A stretch of 64,000 bases of DNA from Candidatus Dojkabacteria bacterium (GTDB taxonomy: Bacteria > Patescibacteriota > Dojkabacteria > SC72), in assembly GCA_050950145.1 (NCBI GenBank), contig JBMNHB010000001.1, forward strand, positions 428,820 through 492,819, read 5' to 3'. Positions 1-46,164 of the stretch are shown piece after piece (position 1 is the first letter of the stretch; every line of letters starts with the position of its first letter). The position numbers and the translations under genes were made by a program. Under the pieces are notes generated by a model. That model had not been told where the DNA came from. It was given only the letters and a program-made list of their open reading frames with translations, and ran no database searches.

Positions 1-662
1 AAAGGAGTTACATTATCTCTGTGTGCAATCACTATGGTTCTCTTCCAGTCTGTACCTGCTGGGTAACAAGTCATTAAGGTAAGTGTATCTTGATCAGAGT
101 ACTTGTTTAGGTATTTTACTTCATCTCTGTTTACAATCTTTACTTCAGAAACAATATATTTGTAGATTATTCCATTGTAGCTGACAAATACCTCATCCCC
201 TTGTTCTAGTTCTGTAAGAAGATAGAAGTAGATATCATATTTTCTTCTTTCATAGAAGTTTACTGCTGAATGAGCAAAGAGAAATACATTACCTTGTTGG
301 TCTGGTGTGTTTGTTCCTTTTGCATGAGCTATACCTTTTTCTAATGCTGCAATGTATTCTTTTTCATTGGTAGGATTTATATCTTTGAGTACTGATGCTG
401 CAATTCTAATCTTAGGAATGTATAGTCCGAAGTTAGAATCAAGCATTACTGTATCAGTGTCTTTATTGATTTCTTTAGTAACTTGAGAAGAGTCATCAGT
501 TATCTCTATTCTTGTTTCTGCTACATAATTACGATTTGTGTAGTGAATATAGTACGACTTGAGGACAGGCCAATAGGTAATAACTAGGACAGTAAGGCCT
601 AGTAGGAGTAGTATTACTCCTACTAGAACCTTTTTGTTAATTCCTCTTTTGCTTTCTGACAT
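1..662 (-). CDS. Sortase-family transpeptidase, partial. The N-terminus lies in the window and the gene runs off the window start. It is not in the supplied ORF track because no stop codon falls inside the window.
   Basis: Manual reverse-strand translation from the ATG at 662..660 gives MSESKRGINKKVLVGVILLLLGLTVLVITYWPV..., an N-terminal TM anchor. Further on it has the conserved His (FLFAHSA), the TLxTC catalytic motif (LTLMTCYP) and a downstream Arg (IVIAHRD). The frame is open to position 1. It overlaps the 3' end of the giant surface-protein gene by 26 nt. Confidence 0.7.
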   Translation of the reverse strand, partial: MSESKRGINKKVLVGVILLLLGLTVLVITYWPVLKSYYIHYTNRNYVAETRIEITDDSSQVTKEINKDTDTVMLDSNFGLYIPKIRIAASVLKDINPTNEKEYIAALEKGIAHAKGTNTPDQQGNVFLFAHSAVNFYERRKYDIYFYLLTELEQGDEVFVSYNGIIYKYIVSEVKIVNRDEVKYLNKYSDQDTLTLMTCYPAGTDWKRTIVIAHRDNVTP

Positions 663-3600
663 AGTATGCAACTCCTCCAAGAACAACAATTGCTATAACC
701 CAGATATACCATTTACCTAAAACTTTCTTACCTGTTTCTTCTACATCTCCATCTGTTTTCTCCTCACTATCTTCTGTTTTTTCAACTTCTTGATCATCTA
801 CTTCTAAAACATCATCTTTCTCTCCTGCTACCTCTCCTTCATCTGTAGTATCTTTCTGGCCTGCAACCTCTCCACCTGTTGTTGTAGTGGTGGTAGTGGT
901 TGTTGCAGTAGGAGTACTTATTTTAGGTACTTCTATCACTTCAGGGTCTGATACTATGGTAGATACATTACCAAGCGCATCTACTGTTCTAAGAGCATAG
1001 TAGTATGTCTTTCCTGCTTCTGCTGTAGTATCTGTCCATGAATACTCTGTATTTGGGGATACAGGCATTGGATGAATCCTTGTACTTTCATTTGCAGTGT
1101 ATGATGGTTTATCAGATCTATGAATTTCAACTGTCTTTATTTTTGGATCATTTGGTGTCTTAAACTTTATCACATTACCTGCTTTAGAGTAGTCTATTAC
1201 AGGTGCTGGTTTTTCTAAATCTACAACAACTGTTACATCTGCTGATTTTTGCTCACCTGAAGTAGATTTTGCTACTACATAGAAAGTATATGTACCACTT
1301 GCGCTTACTGTTACTGGACAGTTACCTGTGTTTGCAGTGAATGTTGCAAATGGTGCAACTTCTGCATCTTTGTAACATTCTACTGTAATTGAATTGTTGT
1401 TAAGATCTAATGCTACAAATCCAACATTAAAGCTACTCTTGTTTGTTGGAGTTGCAGGTTGCATTATTCTTACTTTAATATCACTGTCTAATGCTAATAC
1501 TCTATTAGGAGTGAGTAGGGTTACAAATGATATTGCCATTAAACCTGTAAGAAGAGCATAGCTTAACTTCTTGAATGGTTTAAGGAGTAGGGTAATTGCA
1601 CCTAATATCATCATAATTAATGCACCTAATGTTAGATATGTACTTGCACCAGTTACTGGTAGAGTAATTGATGCACCTAATACTTCTCCTTCTTCTGTTT
1701 CAACTGGCTCTATGACTGTTACATCTGTTCCTACAAATGGTGTCTCTGGATCTACTGTAGAAGCACCTAGTACTTCACCGTCTATTAGTGATGTACCTGC
1801 TACCCATGCAATATCTGGATAGTTACCTGGATCTTGATCGAGAGAGATTTTAGTTTTGTATGTTAACACAACTTTATCTCCTTCTTTCATATCTCCAATA
1901 TTCCATTTTGCCTGACCTTTATCATCGTATATAGGTTCTGGTACTGAGATACCAACACCATTCTTTTGTGCTATCCATGAATCAAGGATATATTTGAATC
2001 CTGCTGGAGCAATGTCAGAAACTACTACATTATTTAGAACATATGTACCTTCTGATTCATCGCTTGGTGCTGTTACTGTAATTGTGTATGTAACAATATC
2101 ACCTGCTGATAATGCAACAACTGCATCATTGCTCTTTTCGATCTGTAGGATTGGATCAATTACTTTGTTGATACACTCAACTTCAAGAGTTTGATTACTT
2201 CCTAATATAACCTCTCCATCTAAGAGAACCCCTTCATCATTTACACATCCTCCGAAAGTGTATCCTTCTTTTGGTGTCTCTGTGAATGAATGAACACCTG
2301 GCTGTAATCCTTCAAATACTGCTGGTTGTTTACCATTTGATGTATCTGCAATTTGTTCTGTTACTTCACCTAAGACAACATCAAACAAATCATCTGAGAA
2401 TATATCCCCATCTACATCCTCTCCTTCACTATTTACTACATCCTTTGTAACTATTAATGTAGCTGGTAATTGTGCATTCTTACATACTACATTGTATGTC
2501 TCACCACTTCTTACTGAATAATTAGTAAATTCTTTCTTACTAATGAAGCATCCCAGAGTTGTATAATTCTCATCTTCTACTTCTGATATGGTATGTTTAC
2601 CATTTGCAACCTTGTATGTAGCTGTTGTTCCCTCTGCAATTGTTTGACCAGTACCCTCATCGTTGTTAAGAAGTGCTGTAAACTCGTGTGTATCTATCAT
2701 ATTCGTTTTTCCATCAACTCCAACAACATCTTTAGTTACATTAATTGTTGCATCTTTGAAGTTACCAAAGTTTACCAATACCCTAACATCCCCAGCTGCT
2801 ATTGTAATTGGAGCTGGATTAGCAGATGTTTGAGTCCAACCATCTTTCTGTACCTCACGAATTATATATGTTTCGCCTACTGGTAGGTTAGTAAACTCGT
2901 AGTATCCTAATATGTTTGTTATTGTAGATGGTTCTCCTACATCTAGAACACCATCATTATCCAAATCAATGAAGATTGTCCATCCTCTTAATGGTAATTC
3001 TGAGAATAGTGGTAACACATCCCACTTTCCATTACCATTTCTATCCTCATATTTGAAACCTGAGATACTACCTAATTTTTCATTAGTAAATGTACATGTT
3101 ACTGTTTCATTATCTCCAACCTTGATGTTTGCTGTATATCCATCTCTAACACTATCAGTATCATCACATACTAGAGATTTTAGATTCCAACCCTTTTCAA
3201 ATTGTTCTGTTACAGAGTAATCTCCTGGGATTACTACCTTTTCAATAGTTCCATTGTTACCAATTGTTCCAGTTAGCTCTCCTGTAAATGTAAACTTAGT
3301 CTTATCTCCTCTAGGTTCAACTAATTTCTTGATAATTATTTTACCGTGTGTACTTTTATTTGTGATTGTACATACCTTGTTATCACCAACATTTAGTGTA
3401 ACATTTCCATCTGAATCACAATCATCACTAAATGTTGCCACATATCCATCAAGATTATCTTCACTTACAGTGTAGTCACCTGCATTAAACTTATTAACTT
3501 CTCCACTAGTTACCTTATTACCTGAGACATAGAGAGTGAAGTCTGATACTTGCTTATCTCCATATGTTCCGTTATCAACAACTTTCTCTACAGTTAGTGT

Positions 3601-6600
3601 TGGTTGAATATCATTATTAACAATTGTACAAGTTACATTTTGTCCTTCTGGAAGTGTAAAGACGCCATCACTACCAAGAGAACATTCCAAACTATCCATC
3701 GTATATCCTGTACCTGCAACAGTTTCAGATAGTGTGTATTCCTTATTAACATCACCAAATACTGTTGCTGTGTAGGTTGTTGTATCACCTTCCTCAACAC
3801 CTGCGTCAAATTCTAATGTTGAGTCGGTTAGGGTGATATCAAAGTCATCTACTGTTGCTGTACCACCATGATCATTAATTACTTTCTTGATTACAGTAAT
3901 CTTAGACTGAGAGTCACTATTTGTAATTGTACAAGTCTTATTCTCACCTGAACTTAATGTAATCTTTCCATCTGCACTACAATCTCCACTCCAAGTTGAT
4001 GCTGTATATCCAGGTAACTGATCTTCTCTTACTGTATATTCAACTCCCGAGTTAACTTTGTGAGCCTTACCACTTGTTACTTCAGTATCTCCAATGTAGA
4101 GTTTAAAGTCTGCCACCTGTTTTAAGCCTCCATGATTGTTCTCAACTGTCTTCACAAGTGTAAGAGTTGGTTGTATCTCTGTATTCTTAATTGTACATAC
4201 AGTAGTCTGACCAACTTCAAGAGTTATCTGATTATTATCATCTACAACGATATCATTGGTACAATCCCAGTCACCTGCTTCATATCCTGAAATTCCTTCC
4301 TTAGCAATCTCACTTAATGTATATGTACCTGCTTTGAAGTTACCCCCACTCTTTACTCCACTATCACCAGAGATTGTTGTTGGACCTGTTGCTGTTAATG
4401 TCCAATCAGTAATTTGTGCATTACCACCATATTTATTGTCAACCTCTTTAACTAATTCTAATGATGGTGCAATGTCATCATTAGTTATTGTACAGGTTAC
4501 TCTTTGACCTTCTGTTAAAGAGAACTGATAACTACCAATAATCTTCCCTGTCTTATCATCTGTACAACTCCATTTTCCTTCCTTGTAACCAGGATGATCT
4601 ATCTCCTCCAACTCATATTTTGTATTAGATTTTACTTCTGGAGTAGCAAAATAAGTAGATGTATATTTTCCTATCTCTCCTGGCCATGTTTTAAATTTTA
4701 ATTCATCACCATTTAATTTAATTCCAAAATCATTTGCTGTTGCTGTTCCTCCGTTATCATTAACTACCCTCTTAATTACTGTTAGGGTTGGTGCTACATC
4801 ATCATTTGTAATTGTACAAACAGCTTCTTTTCCTTTTTCAACTATTATCTTGTCACAATTATCATATGTAGTAGCATATCCTCTTTGATTTGCCTCTGGC
4901 TCTATAATAGAGTAGGTACCTGTTGGGTATCTCTTATATATATTTTCACCTAATAGTGGATTTGTGGGATCTTGATCAAAACCAACACCTTTACTAGTAC
5001 CAATCTTAAATGAGAACTCTCTTGCCTCCAATTTACCACCATTATCATTAATAACTTCCTTTCTAACAATCAATGTGCCTGTATCTCTAGTATTAATAAA
5101 TCTACATAATATTTTATCTCCTGAGTTTATTGTTAACTTTGTACTCTCAGTTGGTTTCTCAAAGAATTTTACCCCGCCATTATCACACATCATTGATTTA
5201 ACAGTATAATCATCTTTCTGAATTTCAGAGATAGCATATGTACCTGGCATTATTTCCATAGGTTTTTCCTCTTTACCAAACATTTTGTATTCTTTATCAT
5301 CCAACATCCATGTCCAATCTGTTACATATCTATCATCTACTTCTCCATCACCATCTGTGTCTACAAATTTAATAACTTTAATGGTTGGTCTTTCAATATT
5401 GATAAAATCAACATTCTTTTTATCTTCTCCAGGAGAAAGTTTTATTGTCCAACTTGTACTTGTACCTGGTAAAACAATCCAACCAACCTTCATTACTTCA
5501 ACAACTGTATATTCACCTGGCTCTAATCCAGTAAATGAATATGAACCATCAAGAGCTGTTGTTGTATGTGGTTCTGTAGTTGTATCCAATTTTCCATCGC
5601 CATCTTTATCTATAAAGATTGTATATCCATATACAGGTTTTCTATCATTCGTTGTACTTGCTAATCCATCTAAATCATGAAGCTTACGACCTGAGATAGA
5701 TCCATATTTTGTATTTGTAAATGTACAAGTAACTGATTCTCCTGCACTTAATGAAATATTATCTATTGTTTTTCCATCCGTACAAGAGTATGTTGTTTTC
5801 CAATCACTATAATTATTCTCTGCAACTGCATATGTACCTGCTTTCAAACTAAATGTTTTACTTGGATCTTCTGTATCTGAGTTATCTACCAAATTAAATT
5901 GTTCATTAACTCCATTACCACCTGTCAAAGTAAATCCAAATGTATCGGTACCAAATGGTAATGCTTTCTTAACGATAGTTAATGAACCATCTTGTGTGTT
6001 AGTAATAGTACACTCCTTAGTCTCATTATTTGTAATTGTAATATTTGAACATGTATTACTTACTAAGCTCCAACCTGCTGGTAATGTTTCTGTAATATTG
6101 TATGTACCAGGCATTACATTGTATGTATGAGATTTGGTTGTTCTAATCTTCCCAATATTACTATTAGCCTCATACAAGAAAGTAGGGGAACCGTTTATCG
6201 AAGGAGTACCACTACCTGTTATTGTAAATTCAGTATTATCATTATTAGAAGCTGGACTTAGAACTTTCTTGACAGTTATCTGACCTTGTGGAATTATACA
6301 ATTATTATTGTATATCGCCTGTCCATACTCACTCCAGTTAAGACCTGTAAAGGGAATTCCATCATATGATGTGAATGGAGGAATAATATCTCCCCATTCT
6401 ACTGTTATACCTGGAAACCAAATATCACCAGTATGTCCTGCATGTCCATTTAAATTTCCAGATGCATCAGGTTCAATTACTTCATAAGGACTTGTATGAG
6501 ACTTAGTTCTATGACAAATCTTAATTGTAGGGATAATACCTTTATAGTTTGCAGGATCACTTGCTGATAAGTTATGAGATGATGTAACTGTACCAATGTT

Positions 6601-7560
6601 AGTATAGTTACCTGCAATAGCTGTAGCACTTCCTGTACAAGTCATATTTGTACCAGGTTCTAACTCTGTTCCTGGGCATGTTACTTGTACACCTTTGTCA
6701 TCTGTTACTGCAATGTTTGTTAACTTTACATTACCTGTATTTTGTACAATATATGTAAAGTTTACTGTATCTCCTGCATTTACTTGTACTGCTTCCCCAA
6801 GGGTGTTTGCATCTTGTCCATTTACTTCCTTAACAATTGAGATAGCTGGTCTTTCAACTAAGACAGAACTTAAACGACCTACTAAGTATGCAACATTATT
6901 TTTTTGCTCTTCTGTTACAAATCTATTGAGTGTATTACCTTTTGAATCTTGGAAACCATCTATTTTCAATGTATATTTCATATCTCCAATCGTATAGACC
7001 TGTTCACCATAACCACCATTAGGGAAGGTTATTATGTCATCACAAGGAGTGGTAGACTGTTGGTGTGCACCACAAGGACGTCTGTTTGGTGTTTCATCAA
7101 TATCAAAATCATAAGTAAATGTTGGTGATGGAGAAATTACAGGATTTGAGAAGTTTAATGTTACATTAAGTGTTGCACCATTAGCAGAAGTTCCTGACTG
7201 TGTTGCCCAGTTAAAATGAGTAAAATCACCGATAAGGAATGTCTCATTAGCATTAAAAGTTGTTTCTCCTTTACCATCAAATCTTAAACCACTCTTCTGA
7301 GATCCTACTGGTTTTCCCCATCTAATTTCTTTTGTATTCAAACCAGTTATATTACTACCTCCTGAGACACTTGTCCAAATACCACTAGTAGAAGAAATAG
7401 TATATGGCCCATCAGCAGCAGCTACAGGAGTAATCTCTCCTCCTATATCTCTCAACTGATCAATGGCTAAAAATGGTGGGGCAAAGTTATATCCTACTAA
7501 AAATAGGACTGTTGAAACCTTATACAAAGATTTCAAAAAAGATTTTTTGTTAAACTTCAT
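637..7560 (-). CDS. Giant (2307 aa) secreted cell-surface protein. It has many tandem beta-sandwich modules (DUF11/prealbumin-like modules ending ...VTCTITN, and SdrD/Cna-B-like DxDGDG calcium-binding modules). An internal LPVTG sorting signal lies about 340 aa before the C-terminus. Then come an FN3/Ig-like domain, a poly-Thr linker, an acidic stretch and a C-terminal TM anchor.
   Basis: The ORF is uninterrupted. It has an N-terminal signal peptide (MKFNKKSFLKSLYKVSTVLFLVGYNF), repeated CTITN/CTFTN-terminated modules, and DKDGDGKLD / DTDGDGEVDD / DLDNDGVLD motifs. LPVTG+hydrophobic+KPFKK sits at about aa 1967 (nt 1648..1662). The C-terminus reads TPTATTTTTTTTTGG ... WYIWVIAIVVLGGVAYYVRKQKRN. 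Confidence 0.8.
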   Translation of the reverse strand: MKFNKKSFLKSLYKVSTVLFLVGYNFAPPFLAIDQLRDIGGEITPVAAADGPYTISSTSGIWTSVSGGSNITGLNTKEIRWGKPVGSQKSGLRFDGKGETTFNANETFLIGDFTHFNWATQSGTSANGATLNVTLNFSNPVISPSPTFTYDFDIDETPNRRPCGAHQQSTTPCDDIITFPNGGYGEQVYTIGDMKYTLKIDGFQDSKGNTLNRFVTEEQKNNVAYLVGRLSSVLVERPAISIVKEVNGQDANTLGEAVQVNAGDTVNFTYIVQNTGNVKLTNIAVTDDKGVQVTCPGTELEPGTNMTCTGSATAIAGNYTNIGTVTSSHNLSASDPANYKGIIPTIKICHRTKSHTSPYEVIEPDASGNLNGHAGHTGDIWFPGITVEWGDIIPPFTSYDGIPFTGLNWSEYGQAIYNNNCIIPQGQITVKKVLSPASNNDNTEFTITGSGTPSINGSPTFLYEANSNIGKIRTTKSHTYNVMPGTYNITETLPAGWSLVSNTCSNITITNNETKECTITNTQDGSLTIVKKALPFGTDTFGFTLTGGNGVNEQFNLVDNSDTEDPSKTFSLKAGTYAVAENNYSDWKTTYSCTDGKTIDNISLSAGESVTCTFTNTKYGSISGRKLHDLDGLASTTNDRKPVYGYTIFIDKDGDGKLDTTTEPHTTTALDGSYSFTGLEPGEYTVVEVMKVGWIVLPGTSTSWTIKLSPGEDKKNVDFINIERPTIKVIKFVDTDGDGEVDDRYVTDWTWMLDDKEYKMFGKEEKPMEIMPGTYAISEIQKDDYTVKSMMCDNGGVKFFEKPTESTKLTINSGDKILCRFINTRDTGTLIVRKEVINDNGGKLEAREFSFKIGTSKGVGFDQDPTNPLLGENIYKRYPTGTYSIIEPEANQRGYATTYDNCDKIIVEKGKEAVCTITNDDVAPTLTVIKRVVNDNGGTATANDFGIKLNGDELKFKTWPGEIGKYTSTYFATPEVKSNTKYELEEIDHPGYKEGKWSCTDDKTGKIIGSYQFSLTEGQRVTCTITNDDIAPSLELVKEVDNKYGGNAQITDWTLTATGPTTISGDSGVKSGGNFKAGTYTLSEIAKEGISGYEAGDWDCTNDIVVDDNNQITLEVGQTTVCTIKNTEIQPTLTLVKTVENNHGGLKQVADFKLYIGDTEVTSGKAHKVNSGVEYTVREDQLPGYTASTWSGDCSADGKITLSSGENKTCTITNSDSQSKITVIKKVINDHGGTATVDDFDITLTDSTLEFDAGVEEGDTTTYTATVFGDVNKEYTLSETVAGTGYTMDSLECSLGSDGVFTLPEGQNVTCTIVNNDIQPTLTVEKVVDNGTYGDKQVSDFTLYVSGNKVTSGEVNKFNAGDYTVSEDNLDGYVATFSDDCDSDGNVTLNVGDNKVCTITNKSTHGKIIIKKLVEPRGDKTKFTFTGELTGTIGNNGTIEKVVIPGDYSVTEQFEKGWNLKSLVCDDTDSVRDGYTANIKVGDNETVTCTFTNEKLGSISGFKYEDRNGNGKWDVLPLFSELPLRGWTIFIDLDNDGVLDVGEPSTITNILGYYEFTNLPVGETYIIREVQKDGWTQTSANPAPITIAAGDVRVLVNFGNFKDATINVTKDVVGVDGKTNMIDTHEFTALLNNDEGTGQTIAEGTTATYKVANGKHTISEVEDENYTTLGCFISKKEFTNYSVRSGETYNVVCKNAQLPATLIVTKDVVNSEGEDVDGDIFSDDLFDVVLGEVTEQIADTSNGKQPAVFEGLQPGVHSFTETPKEGYTFGGCVNDEGVLLDGEVILGSNQTLEVECINKVIDPILQIEKSNDAVVALSAGDIVTYTITVTAPSDESEGTYVLNNVVVSDIAPAGFKYILDSWIAQKNGVGISVPEPIYDDKGQAKWNIGDMKEGDKVVLTYKTKISLDQDPGNYPDIAWVAGTSLIDGEVLGASTVDPETPFVGTDVTVIEPVETEEGEVLGASITLPVTGASTYLTLGALIMMILGAITLLLKPFKKLSYALLTGLMAISFVTLLTPNRVLALDSDIKVRIMQPATPTNKSSFNVGFVALDLNNNSITVECYKDAEVAPFATFTANTGNCPVTVSASGTYTFYVVAKSTSGEQKSADVTVVVDLEKPAPVIDYSKAGNVIKFKTPNDPKIKTVEIHRSDKPSYTANESTRIHPMPVSPNTEYSWTDTTAEAGKTYYYALRTVDALGNVSTIVSDPEVIEVPKISTPTATTTTTTTTTGGEVAGQKDTTDEGEVAGEKDDVLEVDDQEVEKTEDSEEKTDGDVEETGKKVLGKWYIWVIAIVVLGGVAYYVRKQKRN

Positions 7561-7665: not shown

Positions 7666-8967
7666 GCATTAGATAAAAACTAGTGTTACCCAACAACACC
7701 CCGTTAGATAAAAATAGTGTTACCCAAATATACTCTGTAATTAAACTAAATACATCAGAGTATGCAAGACAATATTTTTACTAAAATGGCGGTAGTCAAA
7801 AGAAAAAAAGAATATCTAGAAACTAAAAAACGGGAAGAGAAAACTGAGATACTAGACTGGCTAGTCAAAGATACAAACAGGTCTAGGAAGTCACTCATTA
7901 GATCTCTGAACAATCCAAATATTACAGAGAGAAACATATCTGGAAGAGGTGGAAGGAAAAAGAAATATACTCCACAATCTAAAAACATCGTAAAAATGAT
8001 ATGGCAAGCAAATGATTGTATCTGTGCTGAGAGATTTCATGGTCAAATTGAAGAAACACTAAAAGATTTAAAACAAGCAAACAAACTAGAAGGATATATA
8101 GATAGCGACATTGAGTTGGTGAGGAAAATACCTCTAGGTACACTTAAACTCTTTGTTGCTAAGTTCCCTAAACCTAAAAGAGGAAGTATTAGTTCTTCGG
8201 GAAGTGTGAGAGCATTACAAAAACAAATACCTGTGAGAACTTACTTCTCTACTAACATTAAATCGGGCTTCTTTGGTGTTGACTTTGTTGATCATAATGG
8301 AGGAAATGCTACTGGTAAGTTTGCTAGAACATTGGTATTTACAGACCCTAAAACCACATGGATTGTGAGAAGTGCTTGTCTGGGAAAAGATAGCTTAGCT
8401 GTGGGGAATGCTTTTGAATTGAACAAAAAGAAAATACCATACACAATTGAAGGATTACACTCTGACAATGAACCTGCATTACTAACCTCTCTGCTCTCTT
8501 CTAAGGCTAAAGAAAACAATATATTCATTACTAGAAGCAGAAGTTACAAAAAAGAAGATAATGGACATACAGAACAGAAGAATGGAGACAAAGTGAGAGG
8601 TTTAGTGGGATACCGAAGATATGATACATTACAACATATTGATTTACTTAACAGGATATATGAGATTGATGACCAATTTCAAAATCATTTTGTGCCTTCT
8701 GTGAAATTGAAAGAAAAAGAATTTAATGACTTAGGTAGAGTAATTAAGAAGAAATATGATAGTCCTAAAAGTCCATATCAGAGGGTAATGGAAGAGAAGG
8801 ATATTGATATACAATTCAAGATGTCACTTGCGAGTAAACATTCTAAATTAAATAGGTTAGAATTGTTAGAGGAAAGAGATAAATTGTTAAGAAAGTTAAC
8901 TCGCTTAGGTAACACTATTTTTATCTAACGGGTTTGCATTCGGTAACATTTAGTTTTTATCTAACGG
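7666..8967 (+). mobile_element. Insertion sequence, about 1.3 kb, carrying one DDE (rve-superfamily) transposase gene and bounded by nested terminal inverted repeats.
   Basis: Inner inverted repeats are perfect 24-mers: 7701..7724 ccgttagataaaaatagtgttacc is the reverse complement of 8908..8931. Outer imperfect copies are at 7666..7690 and 8942..8967. The transposase stop codon lies inside the right inverted repeat. A possible TACCC flank occurs on both sides. Confidence 0.7.
7762..8928 (+). CDS. DDE transposase/integrase-core (rve) family protein of the insertion sequence. IS481/IS3-like, family not resolved.
   Basis: 388 aa. The D..D..E triad is spaced like retroviral-integrase-type transposases (VDFVDHNGG ... 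LHSDNEPAL ... NGHTEQKNGDKVRG). It has a basic N-terminal HTH-like region. Confidence 0.7.
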   Translation: MQDNIFTKMAVVKRKKEYLETKKREEKTEILDWLVKDTNRSRKSLIRSLNNPNITERNISGRGGRKKKYTPQSKNIVKMIWQANDCICAERFHGQIEETLKDLKQANKLEGYIDSDIELVRKIPLGTLKLFVAKFPKPKRGSISSSGSVRALQKQIPVRTYFSTNIKSGFFGVDFVDHNGGNATGKFARTLVFTDPKTTWIVRSACLGKDSLAVGNAFELNKKKIPYTIEGLHSDNEPALLTSLLSSKAKENNIFITRSRSYKKEDNGHTEQKNGDKVRGLVGYRRYDTLQHIDLLNRIYEIDDQFQNHFVPSVKLKEKEFNDLGRVIKKKYDSPKSPYQRVMEEKDIDIQFKMSLASKHSKLNRLELLEERDKLLRKLTRLGNTIFI

Positions 8968-44586: not shown

Positions 44587-46164
44587 ATGGAAGTTCCGGA
44601 GTTTGAACAAGAAAAAAACACCCCTTACTATAAAGATGAAGAGATTCTAGCTTCCACTGAAAAGAATGTTGACCCTCAAAAGATATATTATAATATACTT
44701 TCTCAGATTTCAGAGAAGATAGATTCAATAGAAACTCACATTAAGAAAGTATCAGTATTTCCGAAGGATAAGGATGATAATGATAATACTGATTATAATT
44801 TGGAAGGTTTTAGAGATGATGAAGAAGTAGTTAGTATTGCTATTGAAAATAACGGTTATGCTTTAAAGTTTGCTTCTGAGAGAATAAGGAGTATAAAAAG
44901 AGTCGTAACAAAAGCAGTTGAAAACTATGGCTATGCTTTAAGATATGTTTCTAACAAACTAAAAGCTGATAAAGATACTGTCTTTGCTGCAGTTGAAAGT
45001 ATTGGTAAAGCATTAAAATTCGCCTCAGGAGAACTACAAGATGATAAAGATATTGTCTTAGCAGCAGTTAAAAAGGATGGTTTAGCTTTAGAATTTGCTT
45101 CAAAAGATTTCCATGACGATGAGGAAGTCGTTACTACTGCTATTAATAATAATGGTTATGCTTTAAAGTTTGCTTCAGAAAGATTAAGAAATAACAGAGA
45201 AATAGTTCTAAAGGCTGTTAGAAGTAATGGCTATGCTTTAAAGTTTGCTTCAGAAGAACTACAAAACGATAAATATGTTGTCCTAACAGCAGTTGAAAGA
45301 AATAATGAAGCTTTAAGATTTGCTTCAAAAGAATTACAAGCTGACAAAGATATTATCCTAGCTGCAGTTAAAAATGATGGCTTTGTTTTAGAATTTGCTT
45401 CAAAAGAATTACAAGCTGATAAAGATGTTGTTTTAATAGCAGTTAGAAATGATGGTTATGCTTTAAGATTTGCTTCAGAAGAACTACAAAACAATAGAAA
45501 TGTTGTCCTAACAACAGTTGGAAAGAATGGTTTAGCTTTAGAGTTTGCTTCAGAAGAACTACAAAATGACAAAGATGTTGTTCTGACAGCAGTTAAAAAT
45601 GATGGTTATGCACTATATTATGCTTCGGAAGAACTGCAAAATGACAAAGATGTTGTCCTTGTAGCAGTTGGAAAAGATGGTGAAGCTTTAGAGTTTGCTT
45701 CAAAGAGACTTCGTAATGATGAAGATGTAGTTATGAGAGCTATTGAGAATAACGGTAATGCTTTAAGATTTGCTTCAGAGAGATTGAGAAATAATAAAGA
45801 GATAACTCTAAAGGCTGTTAGAAAATATGGTCCTGTTTTAGCATATCTTTCCGAACAATTAAGAGATGATAAAGAGATTGTCATGGAAGCAATTAAAAGC
45901 TATGGCTATGTTCTACACTTTGCCTCAGAGCGACTAAGAAATAATAGAGAGATAGCTCTAAGTGCGGTTAAGAGGGATGCTAGAAACTTCAGAAATCTTT
46001 CAGCAGAGTTTAGAAATGACAGAGAATTAGCTATAATTGCAGTTAAAGGCGATGCAATGAATCTAGAATTTGTTTCGGATAAACTAAAACATGACAGGCT
46101 AATAGTCATAGCAGCAGTCAACAATAATGGTTATACATTAAAGTTTACTCCCACATTATTCTAA
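44587..46164 (+). CDS. Tandem-repeat protein with about 17 copies of a 25-aa (75-bp) repeat (DUF4116-like, as recalled).
   Basis: The unit ALxFASEELQNDKDVVLxAVKNDGY recurs from residue 85 or so to the C-terminus. The N-terminus is acidic and non-repetitive. Confidence 0.7.
   Translation: MEVPEFEQEKNTPYYKDEEILASTEKNVDPQKIYYNILSQISEKIDSIETHIKKVSVFPKDKDDNDNTDYNLEGFRDDEEVVSIAIENNGYALKFASERIRSIKRVVTKAVENYGYALRYVSNKLKADKDTVFAAVESIGKALKFASGELQDDKDIVLAAVKKDGLALEFASKDFHDDEEVVTTAINNNGYALKFASERLRNNREIVLKAVRSNGYALKFASEELQNDKYVVLTAVERNNEALRFASKELQADKDIILAAVKNDGFVLEFASKELQADKDVVLIAVRNDGYALRFASEELQNNRNVVLTTVGKNGLALEFASEELQNDKDVVLTAVKNDGYALYYASEELQNDKDVVLVAVGKDGEALEFASKRLRNDEDVVMRAIENNGNALRFASERLRNNKEITLKAVRKYGPVLAYLSEQLRDDKEIVMEAIKSYGYVLHFASERLRNNREIALSAVKRDARNFRNLSAEFRNDRELAIIAVKGDAMNLEFVSDKLKHDRLIVIAAVNNNGYTLKFTPTLF

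Follow-up and report, generated by a model that had tools for sequence, protein, structure and literature searches.

The closest described precedent for the locus presented here is found in the streptococcal IgA1 protease and its relatives ZmpB, ZmpC and ZmpD (hereafter Zmp), which possess a signal peptide, an atypical N-terminal LPXTG motif, two transmembrane (TM) segments and a second signal-peptidase site (PMC3518915). A passage of the same paper that cites Bender & Weiser 2006 gives the second of these TM segments as a proposed second signal peptide. Our study analysed 64,000 nucleotides (nt) of the genome of a Candidatus Dojkabacteria bacterium (contig JBMNHB010000001.1, positions 428,820 to 492,819; this whole stretch is referred to as the window), near the start of which a minus-strand open reading frame (ORF; 637..7560) encodes a giant surface protein of 2307 amino acids (aa) with an internal sortase motif, LPVTG, and is overlapped at its 3' end by a sortase gene. 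The Zmp proteins and the window protein are alike in the presence, here partly predicted, of a signal peptide, an LPXTG motif, two TM segments, a second signal-peptidase site and an exported C-terminal part, and this likeness is one of architecture only. Judged by its sequence, the locus is a three-part unit of Patescibacteria (the Candidate Phyla Radiation, CPR), which consists of a giant LPxTG adhesin, a small type-I membrane protein (hereafter the module) and a sortase. The adhesin and module genes are fused in frame in the Dojkabacteria genome of the window, and across the family they are repeatedly fused or split.

Zmp proteins have a short part before the LPXTG motif and a large domain after the TM hairpin, whereas here an adhesin of ~1,930 aa is followed by a membrane-anchored module of 284 aa, with a C-terminal TM segment that is absent from the C-terminal part of Zmp. 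No dedicated sortase is adjacent to the Zmp genes, compared to the dedicated, overlapping one at this locus, and a state split into two genes has not been described for Zmp, yet exists in relatives of the window protein. The M26 zinc metalloprotease domain of Zmp (HExxH...E) is also missing here, as a Pfam scan of the whole giant protein returned no peptidase family, M26 included. Furthermore, the two systems are divided between Bacillota (Zmp) and Patescibacteria (the window cassette). A first-pass annotation of this DNA, made from the sequence without database searches, had called internal sortase processing unusual. This statement needs qualification, as an LPXTG motif ahead of a TM hairpin and a second signal-peptidase site has its precedent in Zmp; however, no description of this architecture in the CPR was found in the literature searched, in which Zmp was the sole precedent found. 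The junction layout, a sorting signal joined to a second signal peptide, is therefore known from Zmp, whereas the form described here is widespread, unannotated and linked to an undescribed module family.

Compared to the canonical sorting signals and housekeeping sortases of Gram-positive bacteria, the locus agrees in its LPVTG motif, 22-aa hydrophobic helix and K-rich tail, in the TLxTC motif, His and Arg of the enzyme and in the presence of peptidoglycan precursor genes, whereas it differs in that the signal is internal, its tail appears to double as the n-region of a signal peptide and the sortase falls into no curated class. The proteobacterial ‘marine’ sortase system, after D. Haft's TIGRFAMs descriptions, consists of a class GN sortase (TIGR03784), a single target encoded next to it and an OmpA-like protein as accessory. 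Both this system and the window cassette are conserved cassettes with one sortase beside one target and a third, non-catalytic, envelope-associated protein, although the accessory here consists of Ig/FN3 domains, a stalk and a TM segment rather than an OmpA-like protein, and the window sortase scores 31.6 bits against a TIGR03784 cut-off of 158. We know of no target–accessory fusion in the ‘marine’ system. Sortase-assembled pili resemble the locus in having a SpaA/CnaB-like prealbumin-fold substrate with E-box-like motifs and in that the nearest solved sortases are of class C, whereas the locus differs from them by the lack of a YPK lysine, the lack of an evident lid or C-terminal TM segment in the sortase, and a single substrate of 2,307 aa. 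The structural polyproteins of flaviviruses and hepaciviruses contain internal signal peptides that are cut by the host signal peptidase. A stop-transfer helix followed by a re-initiating signal with a signal-peptidase site, and separate products from one ORF, would be common to these viruses and the locus. In contrast, the viral proteins are processed at the eukaryotic endoplasmic reticulum with no transpeptidase, whereas here a sortase would make one of the two cuts and ligate its product to the wall as well.

The internal LPVTG motif, the sole LPxTG of the whole protein, occupies aa 1967–1971 (1648..1662; this and all further features of the giant protein are on the minus strand). It precedes a hydrophobic segment (TM1, the sorting-signal helix; aa 1972–1993, 1582..1647, ASTYLTLGALIMMILGAITLLL, Kyte–Doolittle maximum 2.32) that is predicted to run from the outside to the inside, and a basic loop, KPFKK (aa 1994–1998, 1567..1581), which is predicted to be cytoplasmic. 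As the first-pass annotation had described, the ORF then continues in frame, with no stop, into a second segment resembling a signal peptide (TM2, the internal signal peptide; aa 1999–2023, 1492..1566, LSYALLTGLMAISFVTLLTPNRVLA), which has Pro at −6 and VLA at −3 to −1. All parts of a canonical sorting signal are present, whereas the extreme C-terminal position and the stop after the charged tail are missing, both in the window and in all close orthologs; 336 residues follow LPVTG, in line with the ~340 first given, and 309 in-frame residues follow KPFKK. The stretch aa 1994–2023 displays every hallmark of a signal peptide (KPFKK, LSYALLTGLMAISFVTLL, TPNR and VLA in order), a signal peptidase I site is predicted between A2023 and L2024 (VLA/LD), and KPFKK appears to be the tail of the sorting signal and the n-region of the internal signal peptide at once. 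A 19-residue Kyte–Doolittle scan found exactly four hydrophobic segments across the 2307 aa, namely the N-terminal signal peptide, TM1, TM2 and a terminal TM3. In an AlphaFold2 model, TM1 (model residues 22–43) and TM2 were helical with a five-residue loop between them; the module after them was predicted with confidence, the stalk was disordered and TM3 was again a helix. Chance is excluded as an explanation of the internal LPVTG, because the random expectation is ~0.03 LPxTG per protein of this size and the motif, TM segment and basic loop are kept in 97 of 105 fused relatives.

It is close to certain that the fusion is real and conserved. A homolog search with the last 357 aa of the giant protein as the query returned relatives from Candidatus Dojkabacteria, and every close ortholog covering the junction reads through it in one frame (P0002, P0005, P0008 with 44 % identity, P0009, L001, L002 and L007–L020). 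In L001 and L002 (contigs of 51 kb and 33 kb) the upstream part is broken by N runs alone and the junction is continuous. Apparent separate genes of 318–324 aa, which begin ‘MMILG...’ inside TM1, were called in P0001, P0003 and P0006, and their two-gene status was rejected, as the gene calls were broken by N runs or contig ends. The ratio of non-synonymous to synonymous substitution rates (dN/dS) at the junction was 0.11–0.33 over 78 codons (15 pairwise comparisons of six gap-free Dojkabacteria orthologs), and the junction is therefore translated and under purifying selection. The in-frame junction is present in >100 distinct 50 %-identity clusters and in ~22 species-representative genomes from independent projects, and the exact 2307-aa protein has been deposited at NCBI from a 748-kb contig. 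A stop right after KPFKK in the orthologs, with a single indel in the window, was the outcome named in advance as pointing to two separate genes; instead, all close orthologs read through as one ORF, and two overlapping genes were found in distant relatives.

Each of these observations speaks against the fusion being an artefact of the source genome, whether through an indel introduced during sequencing or assembly, an overlooked stop codon or a recent accident resembling pseudogene formation, and we consider this explanation to have a vanishingly small probability. It could draw upon frameshifts seen in this gene on one related contig (P0004 and P0011) and on three Logan contigs (L004–L006), although these lie either off the junction or on an error-ridden contig. 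On the 37.6-kb ENA contig that carries P0011 and P0004, the ortholog is distributed over several ORFs and the end of P0004, ‘KQMEM’, is the +1 frame of ‘KTDGDVEE’, which suggests an error-prone assembly rather than a biological split. The three Logan contigs (L004:1950–2160, L005:2690–2900 and L006), which stem from independent assemblies, have a 1-nt deletion in common (TTGGGAAGT to TTGGAAGT). This deletion shifts the frame of the adhesin gene ~150 codons upstream of LPxTG, off the junction, and the population concerned could carry it as a true mutation, either inactivating or phase-variable.

Among 1.84 billion representative proteins searched with a two-domain module profile (alignment A1), 3022 matched at E≤1e-3, and 369 clusters did so at E<1e-30. 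The best 147 single-stretch matches were divided by a first count into 103 fused and 44 stand-alone proteins. The former reach 2,831 aa and carry the module ~90–120 aa from the C-terminus, whereas the latter are ~320 aa long, with a module that begins near residue 24 behind an N-terminal signal peptide of its own, which in the stand-alone homolog P0010 is the equivalent of TM2. A later tally among the best matches gave 105 proteins fused behind the position of an internal sorting signal and ~41 stand-alone. The sorting motif of these 105 representatives is LPxTG in 97, LAxTG in 3 and MPSTG in 1, and 4 have none. Hence the motif, whose lack of conservation would have spoken against a sorting signal, is kept while X varies freely (A, S, N, G, R, K, V, D, Q, E and others) and the flanks fall to ~20 % identity. 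In the fused relatives LPxTG lies ~52 residues N-terminal of the predicted cleavage site and is followed by the TM segment, the basic loop (median 4 K/R and ~0.17 D/E family-wide) and the second hydrophobic segment.

The split state was examined in five stand-alone loci (L003, L025, L029, L033 and L035). In all five, the upstream gene ends with LPxTG, a TM segment, a basic tail and a stop (e.g. ...LPQTGADIKWIIAASLLLTFGVTTFALGIKIRRKYE and then the stop codon), and the module gene, with its own signal peptide, overlaps or abuts the stop codon of the adhesin. The first-pass annotation had offered fusion of two genes and sortase processing of a polyprotein as alternatives. Evolutionary fusion is demonstrated by these split relatives and processing is predicted from the sequence, so that the choice was a false one and the two would hold together. 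A neighbour-joining tree of 153 modules required ≥18 changes between the fused and split states, compared to ~36 for shuffled states, and the states were interspersed, from which it follows that they interconverted repeatedly. A single indel at the overlap of stop and start would be enough to switch the state. Midpoint rooting of the tree yielded a fused root, a result that is too weak to order fusion and fission and was not used.

Among species-representative genomes, the module family was found in Dojkabacteria/WS6, Roizmanbacteria, Moraniibacteria, WWE3 and other Patescibacteria. Several cassette loci are labelled Gammaproteobacteria/Pseudomonadales (L026, L029, L032, L035 and L036) or Saccharibacteria (L011, L016 and others), and these odd taxon labels are probably the automatic mis-assignment of Patescibacteria bins. 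Many Parcubacteria-like fused members (P0054, P0102, P0124, P0082, P0091 and others) have (K-T)n or ‘TDTKTKTKTK’ tracts directly before VLGA-LPxTG. Three of the four relatives without LPxTG belong to this group with K-T tracts and read ‘...VLGAATGT...’, as though LP had been deleted.

The module itself covers aa 2024–2214 (919..1491), as determined by alignment, AlphaFold2 and Foldseek. This 191-aa region was modelled by AlphaFold2 with a predicted local distance difference test (pLDDT) score of 90.4, as 14 strands in two beta-sandwich domains. Foldseek comparison to the PDB gave a probability of 1.0 to gp130, fibronectin and the Ig domains of phage lambda J, with whole-model template-modelling scores of 0.3–0.4, whereas no significant match was obtained in Pfam (including fn3), NCBIfam or, by profile search, PDB sequences. 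The assignment of the modelled module to FN3/Ig is thus at the level of the fold only. The FN3/Ig-like domain that had been proposed after TM2 was therefore right as to fold and wrong as to number, as there are two such domains in tandem. Conserved residues of the module are structural, and comprise an invariant Cys pair (C2061 and C2080) and an FN3-type YYYA.R..D..GN.S motif. The position of aa 2181 (~1018..1020) is Cys in 88 % of the module family and Ala in the Dojkabacteria clade of the window, from which the partner Cys is also missing; in the family, this Cys and another one early in the FN3 domain probably form a second disulfide there. The module is followed by a Thr-rich run (aa 2215–2230) and an acidic stalk (aa 2231–2283), together at 712..918 and predicted to be disordered, and by TM3 (aa 2284–2301), which with its basic tail RKQKRN and a TAA stop occupies 637..711 and is predicted to be the membrane anchor of the module. 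Hydropathy scanning and AlphaFold2 agree here with the poly-Thr linker, acidic stretch and terminal TM segment of the first-pass annotation.

The sortase gene (1..662, minus strand) starts with an ATG at nt 662, 26 nt ahead of the stop codon of the giant ORF, with a GGAGGA ribosome-binding site inside that ORF, and leaves the window after 220 aa. An overlap of 26 nt is found identically in loci L001 and L002, and the sortase lies directly downstream of the module, mostly overlapping it, in 25 of 28 informative GTDB genome loci. Its identification as a sortase was borne out by Pfam PF04203 (E 8.7e-25; 87.3 bits, cut-off 26.6), by TIGR01076 (63 bits, cut-off 39.35) and by the catalytic motifs FAHS, TLMTC and IAHR, which supply the His, Cys and Arg. 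The nearest solved structures are class C, pilus-type sortases (best PDB E 5e-10), whereas the class C model NF033745 gave 70.6 bits against a cut-off of 160 and full-length orthologs of the sortase showed no C-terminal TM segment. Peptidoglycan synthesis genes are encoded in the window, as previously noted, and include FtsW/RodA, MurG, MurA, a Mur ligase, PBP2, a MraY-like GT4 and PBP1a. Sortase has been described as widespread in the CPR and found to be nearly universal in Microgenomates (Méheust et al., PMC6744442).

Upstream of the junction, the giant protein has the build of a fibrillar adhesin, as indicated by ~1,700 aa of DUF7507, SpaA-like and DUF11 domains. It begins with a Sec signal peptide (aa 1–32, the end being approximate; 7465..7560, MKFNKKSFLKSLYKVSTVLFLVGYNFAPPFLA) and a choice-of-anchor K domain (aa 57–226, 6883..7392; NCBIfam NF038131, E 9.9e-32). 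The fibrillar stalk (aa 238–1924, 1789..6849) was matched in Pfam by DUF7507, by SpaA/SpaA_2/SpaA_4/SdrD_B prealbumin-like repeats, with SpaA_2 reaching E 8e-76 in 5 stretches, and by DUF11 (aa 1805–1924), and contains E-box-like motifs (Y.L.E...GY) at aa 982, 1175, 1275 and 1363. Two GEVLGAS motifs (aa 1928–1934 and 1958–1964, within 1669..1779) stand just N-terminal of the sorting motif. At NCBI the identical protein (MGI6484431.1, Dojkabacteria) is named ‘THxN family PEP-CTERM protein’. The THxN/choice-of-anchor K N-terminal domain was confirmed (NF038125, 92 bits with a cut-off of 85; NF038131, 110 bits), whereas a PEP-CTERM/exosortase identity was rejected, as the profile match ends at position 219 of 246, the C-terminus (WYIWVIAIVVLGGVAYYVRKQKRN) lacks a PEP motif and LPVTG is present. 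The name is thus misleading, an annotation error that has its source in the N-terminal match and hides the sortase signal. Within the giant gene, at 2000..6000, the plus strand has a strongly negative GC skew (−0.2 to −0.33), and the coding strand is accordingly rich in G, which agrees with the Gly/Glu/Asp/Val-rich repeats of the protein.

Taking these features together, we consider it fairly probable that one translation product is cut by both the sortase and signal peptidase I. The fused form keeps all features of both signals and would therefore be expected to be a substrate of both enzymes. The N-terminal signal peptide would direct the protein to Sec, and ~1,930 aa of Ig-like stalk would be exported until TM1 acted as a stop-transfer segment, leaving KPFKK in the cytoplasm by the positive-inside rule. 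TM2 would then re-insert with its N-terminus in and its C-terminus out, export of the module would restart and TM3 would anchor it, giving a precursor with three TM segments, of which TM1 and TM2 form a hairpin. Signal peptidase I could free the module by cutting after VLA (A2023/L2024), with LDSDIKVR as the new start, while the translationally coupled sortase would cut LPVT/G and move the adhesin, now ending in ...GEVLGASITLPVT, to lipid II/peptidoglycan. A two-TM hairpin peptide of 53 aa would stay behind in the membrane. Relatives in which adhesin and module are encoded by separate, overlapping genes would arrive at identical end products, and such equivalence of the mature products would explain the many interconversions of the fused and split states. 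Through this fusion and the 26-nt overlap of the sortase gene, adhesin, module and sortase would be synthesised and inserted into the membrane in a coupled manner.

Several points weigh against this model of double cleavage. Each post-translational step in it is deduced from the sequence, and a cut by signal peptidase I in an internal segment behind a TM hairpin, while plausible, is a prediction of the same kind. The AlphaFold2 confidence of the hairpin was low (pLDDT ~45–62). The sortase fits no curated class, as the class C, D, E, F and GN models all stayed under their cut-offs, and given its class C kinship the nucleophile need not be lipid II. Of 106 fused relatives, 58 have a Met close to where the internal signal peptide begins; the TM regions are Met-rich and this was not counted as evidence of internal initiation, yet independent initiation of the module is conceivable in the relatives that bear such a Met, which the n-region of the window lineage lacks. 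The function of the module, moreover, remains a guess. The four of 105 fused relatives that have no recognisable sortase motif kept the hairpin and module, and so the architecture can exist without cleavage. This last observation favours the reading in which LPVTG is never cut, the hairpin is the central membrane anchor of a polypeptide with two ectodomains, LPxTG is a relic and the sortase serves other substrates. A relic would be expected to decay, whereas LPxTG persists among flanks that have diverged to ~20 % identity; in addition, the sortase is translationally coupled to the giant ORF and its synteny is conserved, the first protein of the split relatives ends exactly like a canonical sortase substrate and no further LPxTG-type substrate was found within the 64-kb window. 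We regard this reading as unlikely.

Two further explanations accept the cut at LPVTG, and we give each of them a quite low probability. In one of these the internal signal peptide stays uncut, and the remnant from G1971 is a protein with three TM segments (TM1, TM2, the module and TM3). Internal hydrophobic segments behind a TM segment are often uncleaved signal anchors, and TM1 is unusually conserved for a sorting-signal helix (identity of 0.61 in close pairs, compared to 0.68 for the module and a composition-only null of about 0.11–0.12), which hints at a lasting role and, in the double-cleavage model as well, at a specific partner, perhaps the sortase TM segment. TM2, in contrast, diverges quickly (0.34 in the same close pairs), at the pace of a signal peptide, and its c-region is as strict as that of the stand-alone proteins. 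A helix breaker is present at −4 to −7 in 83 of 106 fused relatives, the residues at −3 and −1 are small, and the small-x-Ala site is retained equally by the fused proteins (Ala at −1 in 105/106) and the stand-alone ones (39/40), although the cleavage-site picker favoured Ala at this position and the 105/106 is somewhat circular, which is a further point against the double cut. The other explanation, akin to protein splicing, has the sortase join LPxT to the module, through a Lys side chain or the new N-terminus, such that the hairpin is excised and the conjugate is held by TM3. It would suit the dedicated cassette, in which the module always lies between substrate and sortase, the class C pilus polymerases as nearest solved relatives, a substrate made of pilin-like SpaA domains and the occurrence of one motif, GEVxG, both before LPxTG and in the stalk of the module. 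However, no Lys is invariant across the 153 modules; the best candidate, K2125, is kept as Lys in 86 % and replaced by Arg in 13 %, and all other Lys positions stay below 85 %, so that a pilin-like isopeptide acceptor found no support. Nor did the new N-terminus as the nucleophile, as the position that follows the predicted signal-peptidase cut varies (Ala in 37 %, then L, G, S, V and E). Pilus polymerization was likewise unsupported, with the YPK pilin motif absent from the giant protein and the module, the class C model under its cut-off and the sortase devoid of the C-terminal TM segment typical of class C.

The motif common to the two regions was quantified. The 2307 aa contain precisely four copies of G[EQD]VxG, two of them just before LPVTG (GEVLGAS at aa 1928 and 1958; 1765..1779 and 1675..1689) and two in the stalk of the module (GEVAG at aa 2230 and 2242; 859..873 and 823..837). 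In 83 of 103 fused relatives, G[EQDSN]VxG was found ≤20 aa N-terminal of LPxTG, and its density was 0.89 per 100 aa in the stalks compared to 0.025 in the protein bodies, a difference of ~36-fold. From the predicted topology, both locations should be within the wall layer or near the active site of the sortase, and the motif may for this reason be a wall-spanning or sortase-docking element, which is speculation. Our best guess for the module is that of a non-catalytic, wall-spanning partner or docking element of a dedicated sortase–adhesin pair.

A wider extension of the double-cleavage model, which we put forward tentatively as possible but doubtful, is that sortase acts as a polyprotein-processing enzyme across much of Patescibacteria. 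The adhesin, the Ig/FN3 module and the sortase would form one translationally linked unit, the junction of LPxTG, hairpin and signal peptide would be a breakpoint cut from both sides, and the module would be an obligatory accessory factor, whose GEVxG stalk could mimic the segment before LPxTG to dock the enzyme, or could span the wall. In its boldest version, the module would be the covalent acceptor and the hairpin would be spliced out.

Sortase substrates are defined, and predicted by software, by a C-terminal signal, and at least 100 divergent clusters from uncultured, ultra-small bacteria depart from this rule, all in the same manner. Proteins with such an internal signal are overlooked or wrongly named by annotation pipelines, as illustrated by the ‘PEP-CTERM protein’ of the window. 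If the model of cleavage by both enzymes is true, sortase gains a role in polyprotein splitting and a new module family becomes linked to sortase function in the CPR, where sortase biology is little studied. The Dojkabacteria bacterium of the window is itself an uncultured, ultra-small member of the CPR. On the same premise, the giant adhesins would qualify as candidate parts of the apparatus by which episymbiotic CPR cells attach to their hosts. The switching between fused and split states is also a natural experiment, which indicates that a functional TM hairpin can arise when the tail of a sorting signal is merged with a signal-peptide n-region, and may be useful for protein engineering that employs sortases.

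Two further ORFs of the window, both on the plus strand, were observed alongside the cassette. The first (7762..8928) encodes 388 aa, the N-terminal part of which is very basic, contains a stretch, ‘LHSDNEPA’, that recalls DDE/rve integrase cores, and had no Pfam match at E≤1e-5. In the ortholog locus L001 the giant gene and the BipA gene are immediate neighbours, so that this ORF looks like an insertion, and it is possibly a mobile-element gene. The second (44587..46164) encodes a 525-aa protein made up of approximately ten DUF4116 repeats (E 1.4e-161).

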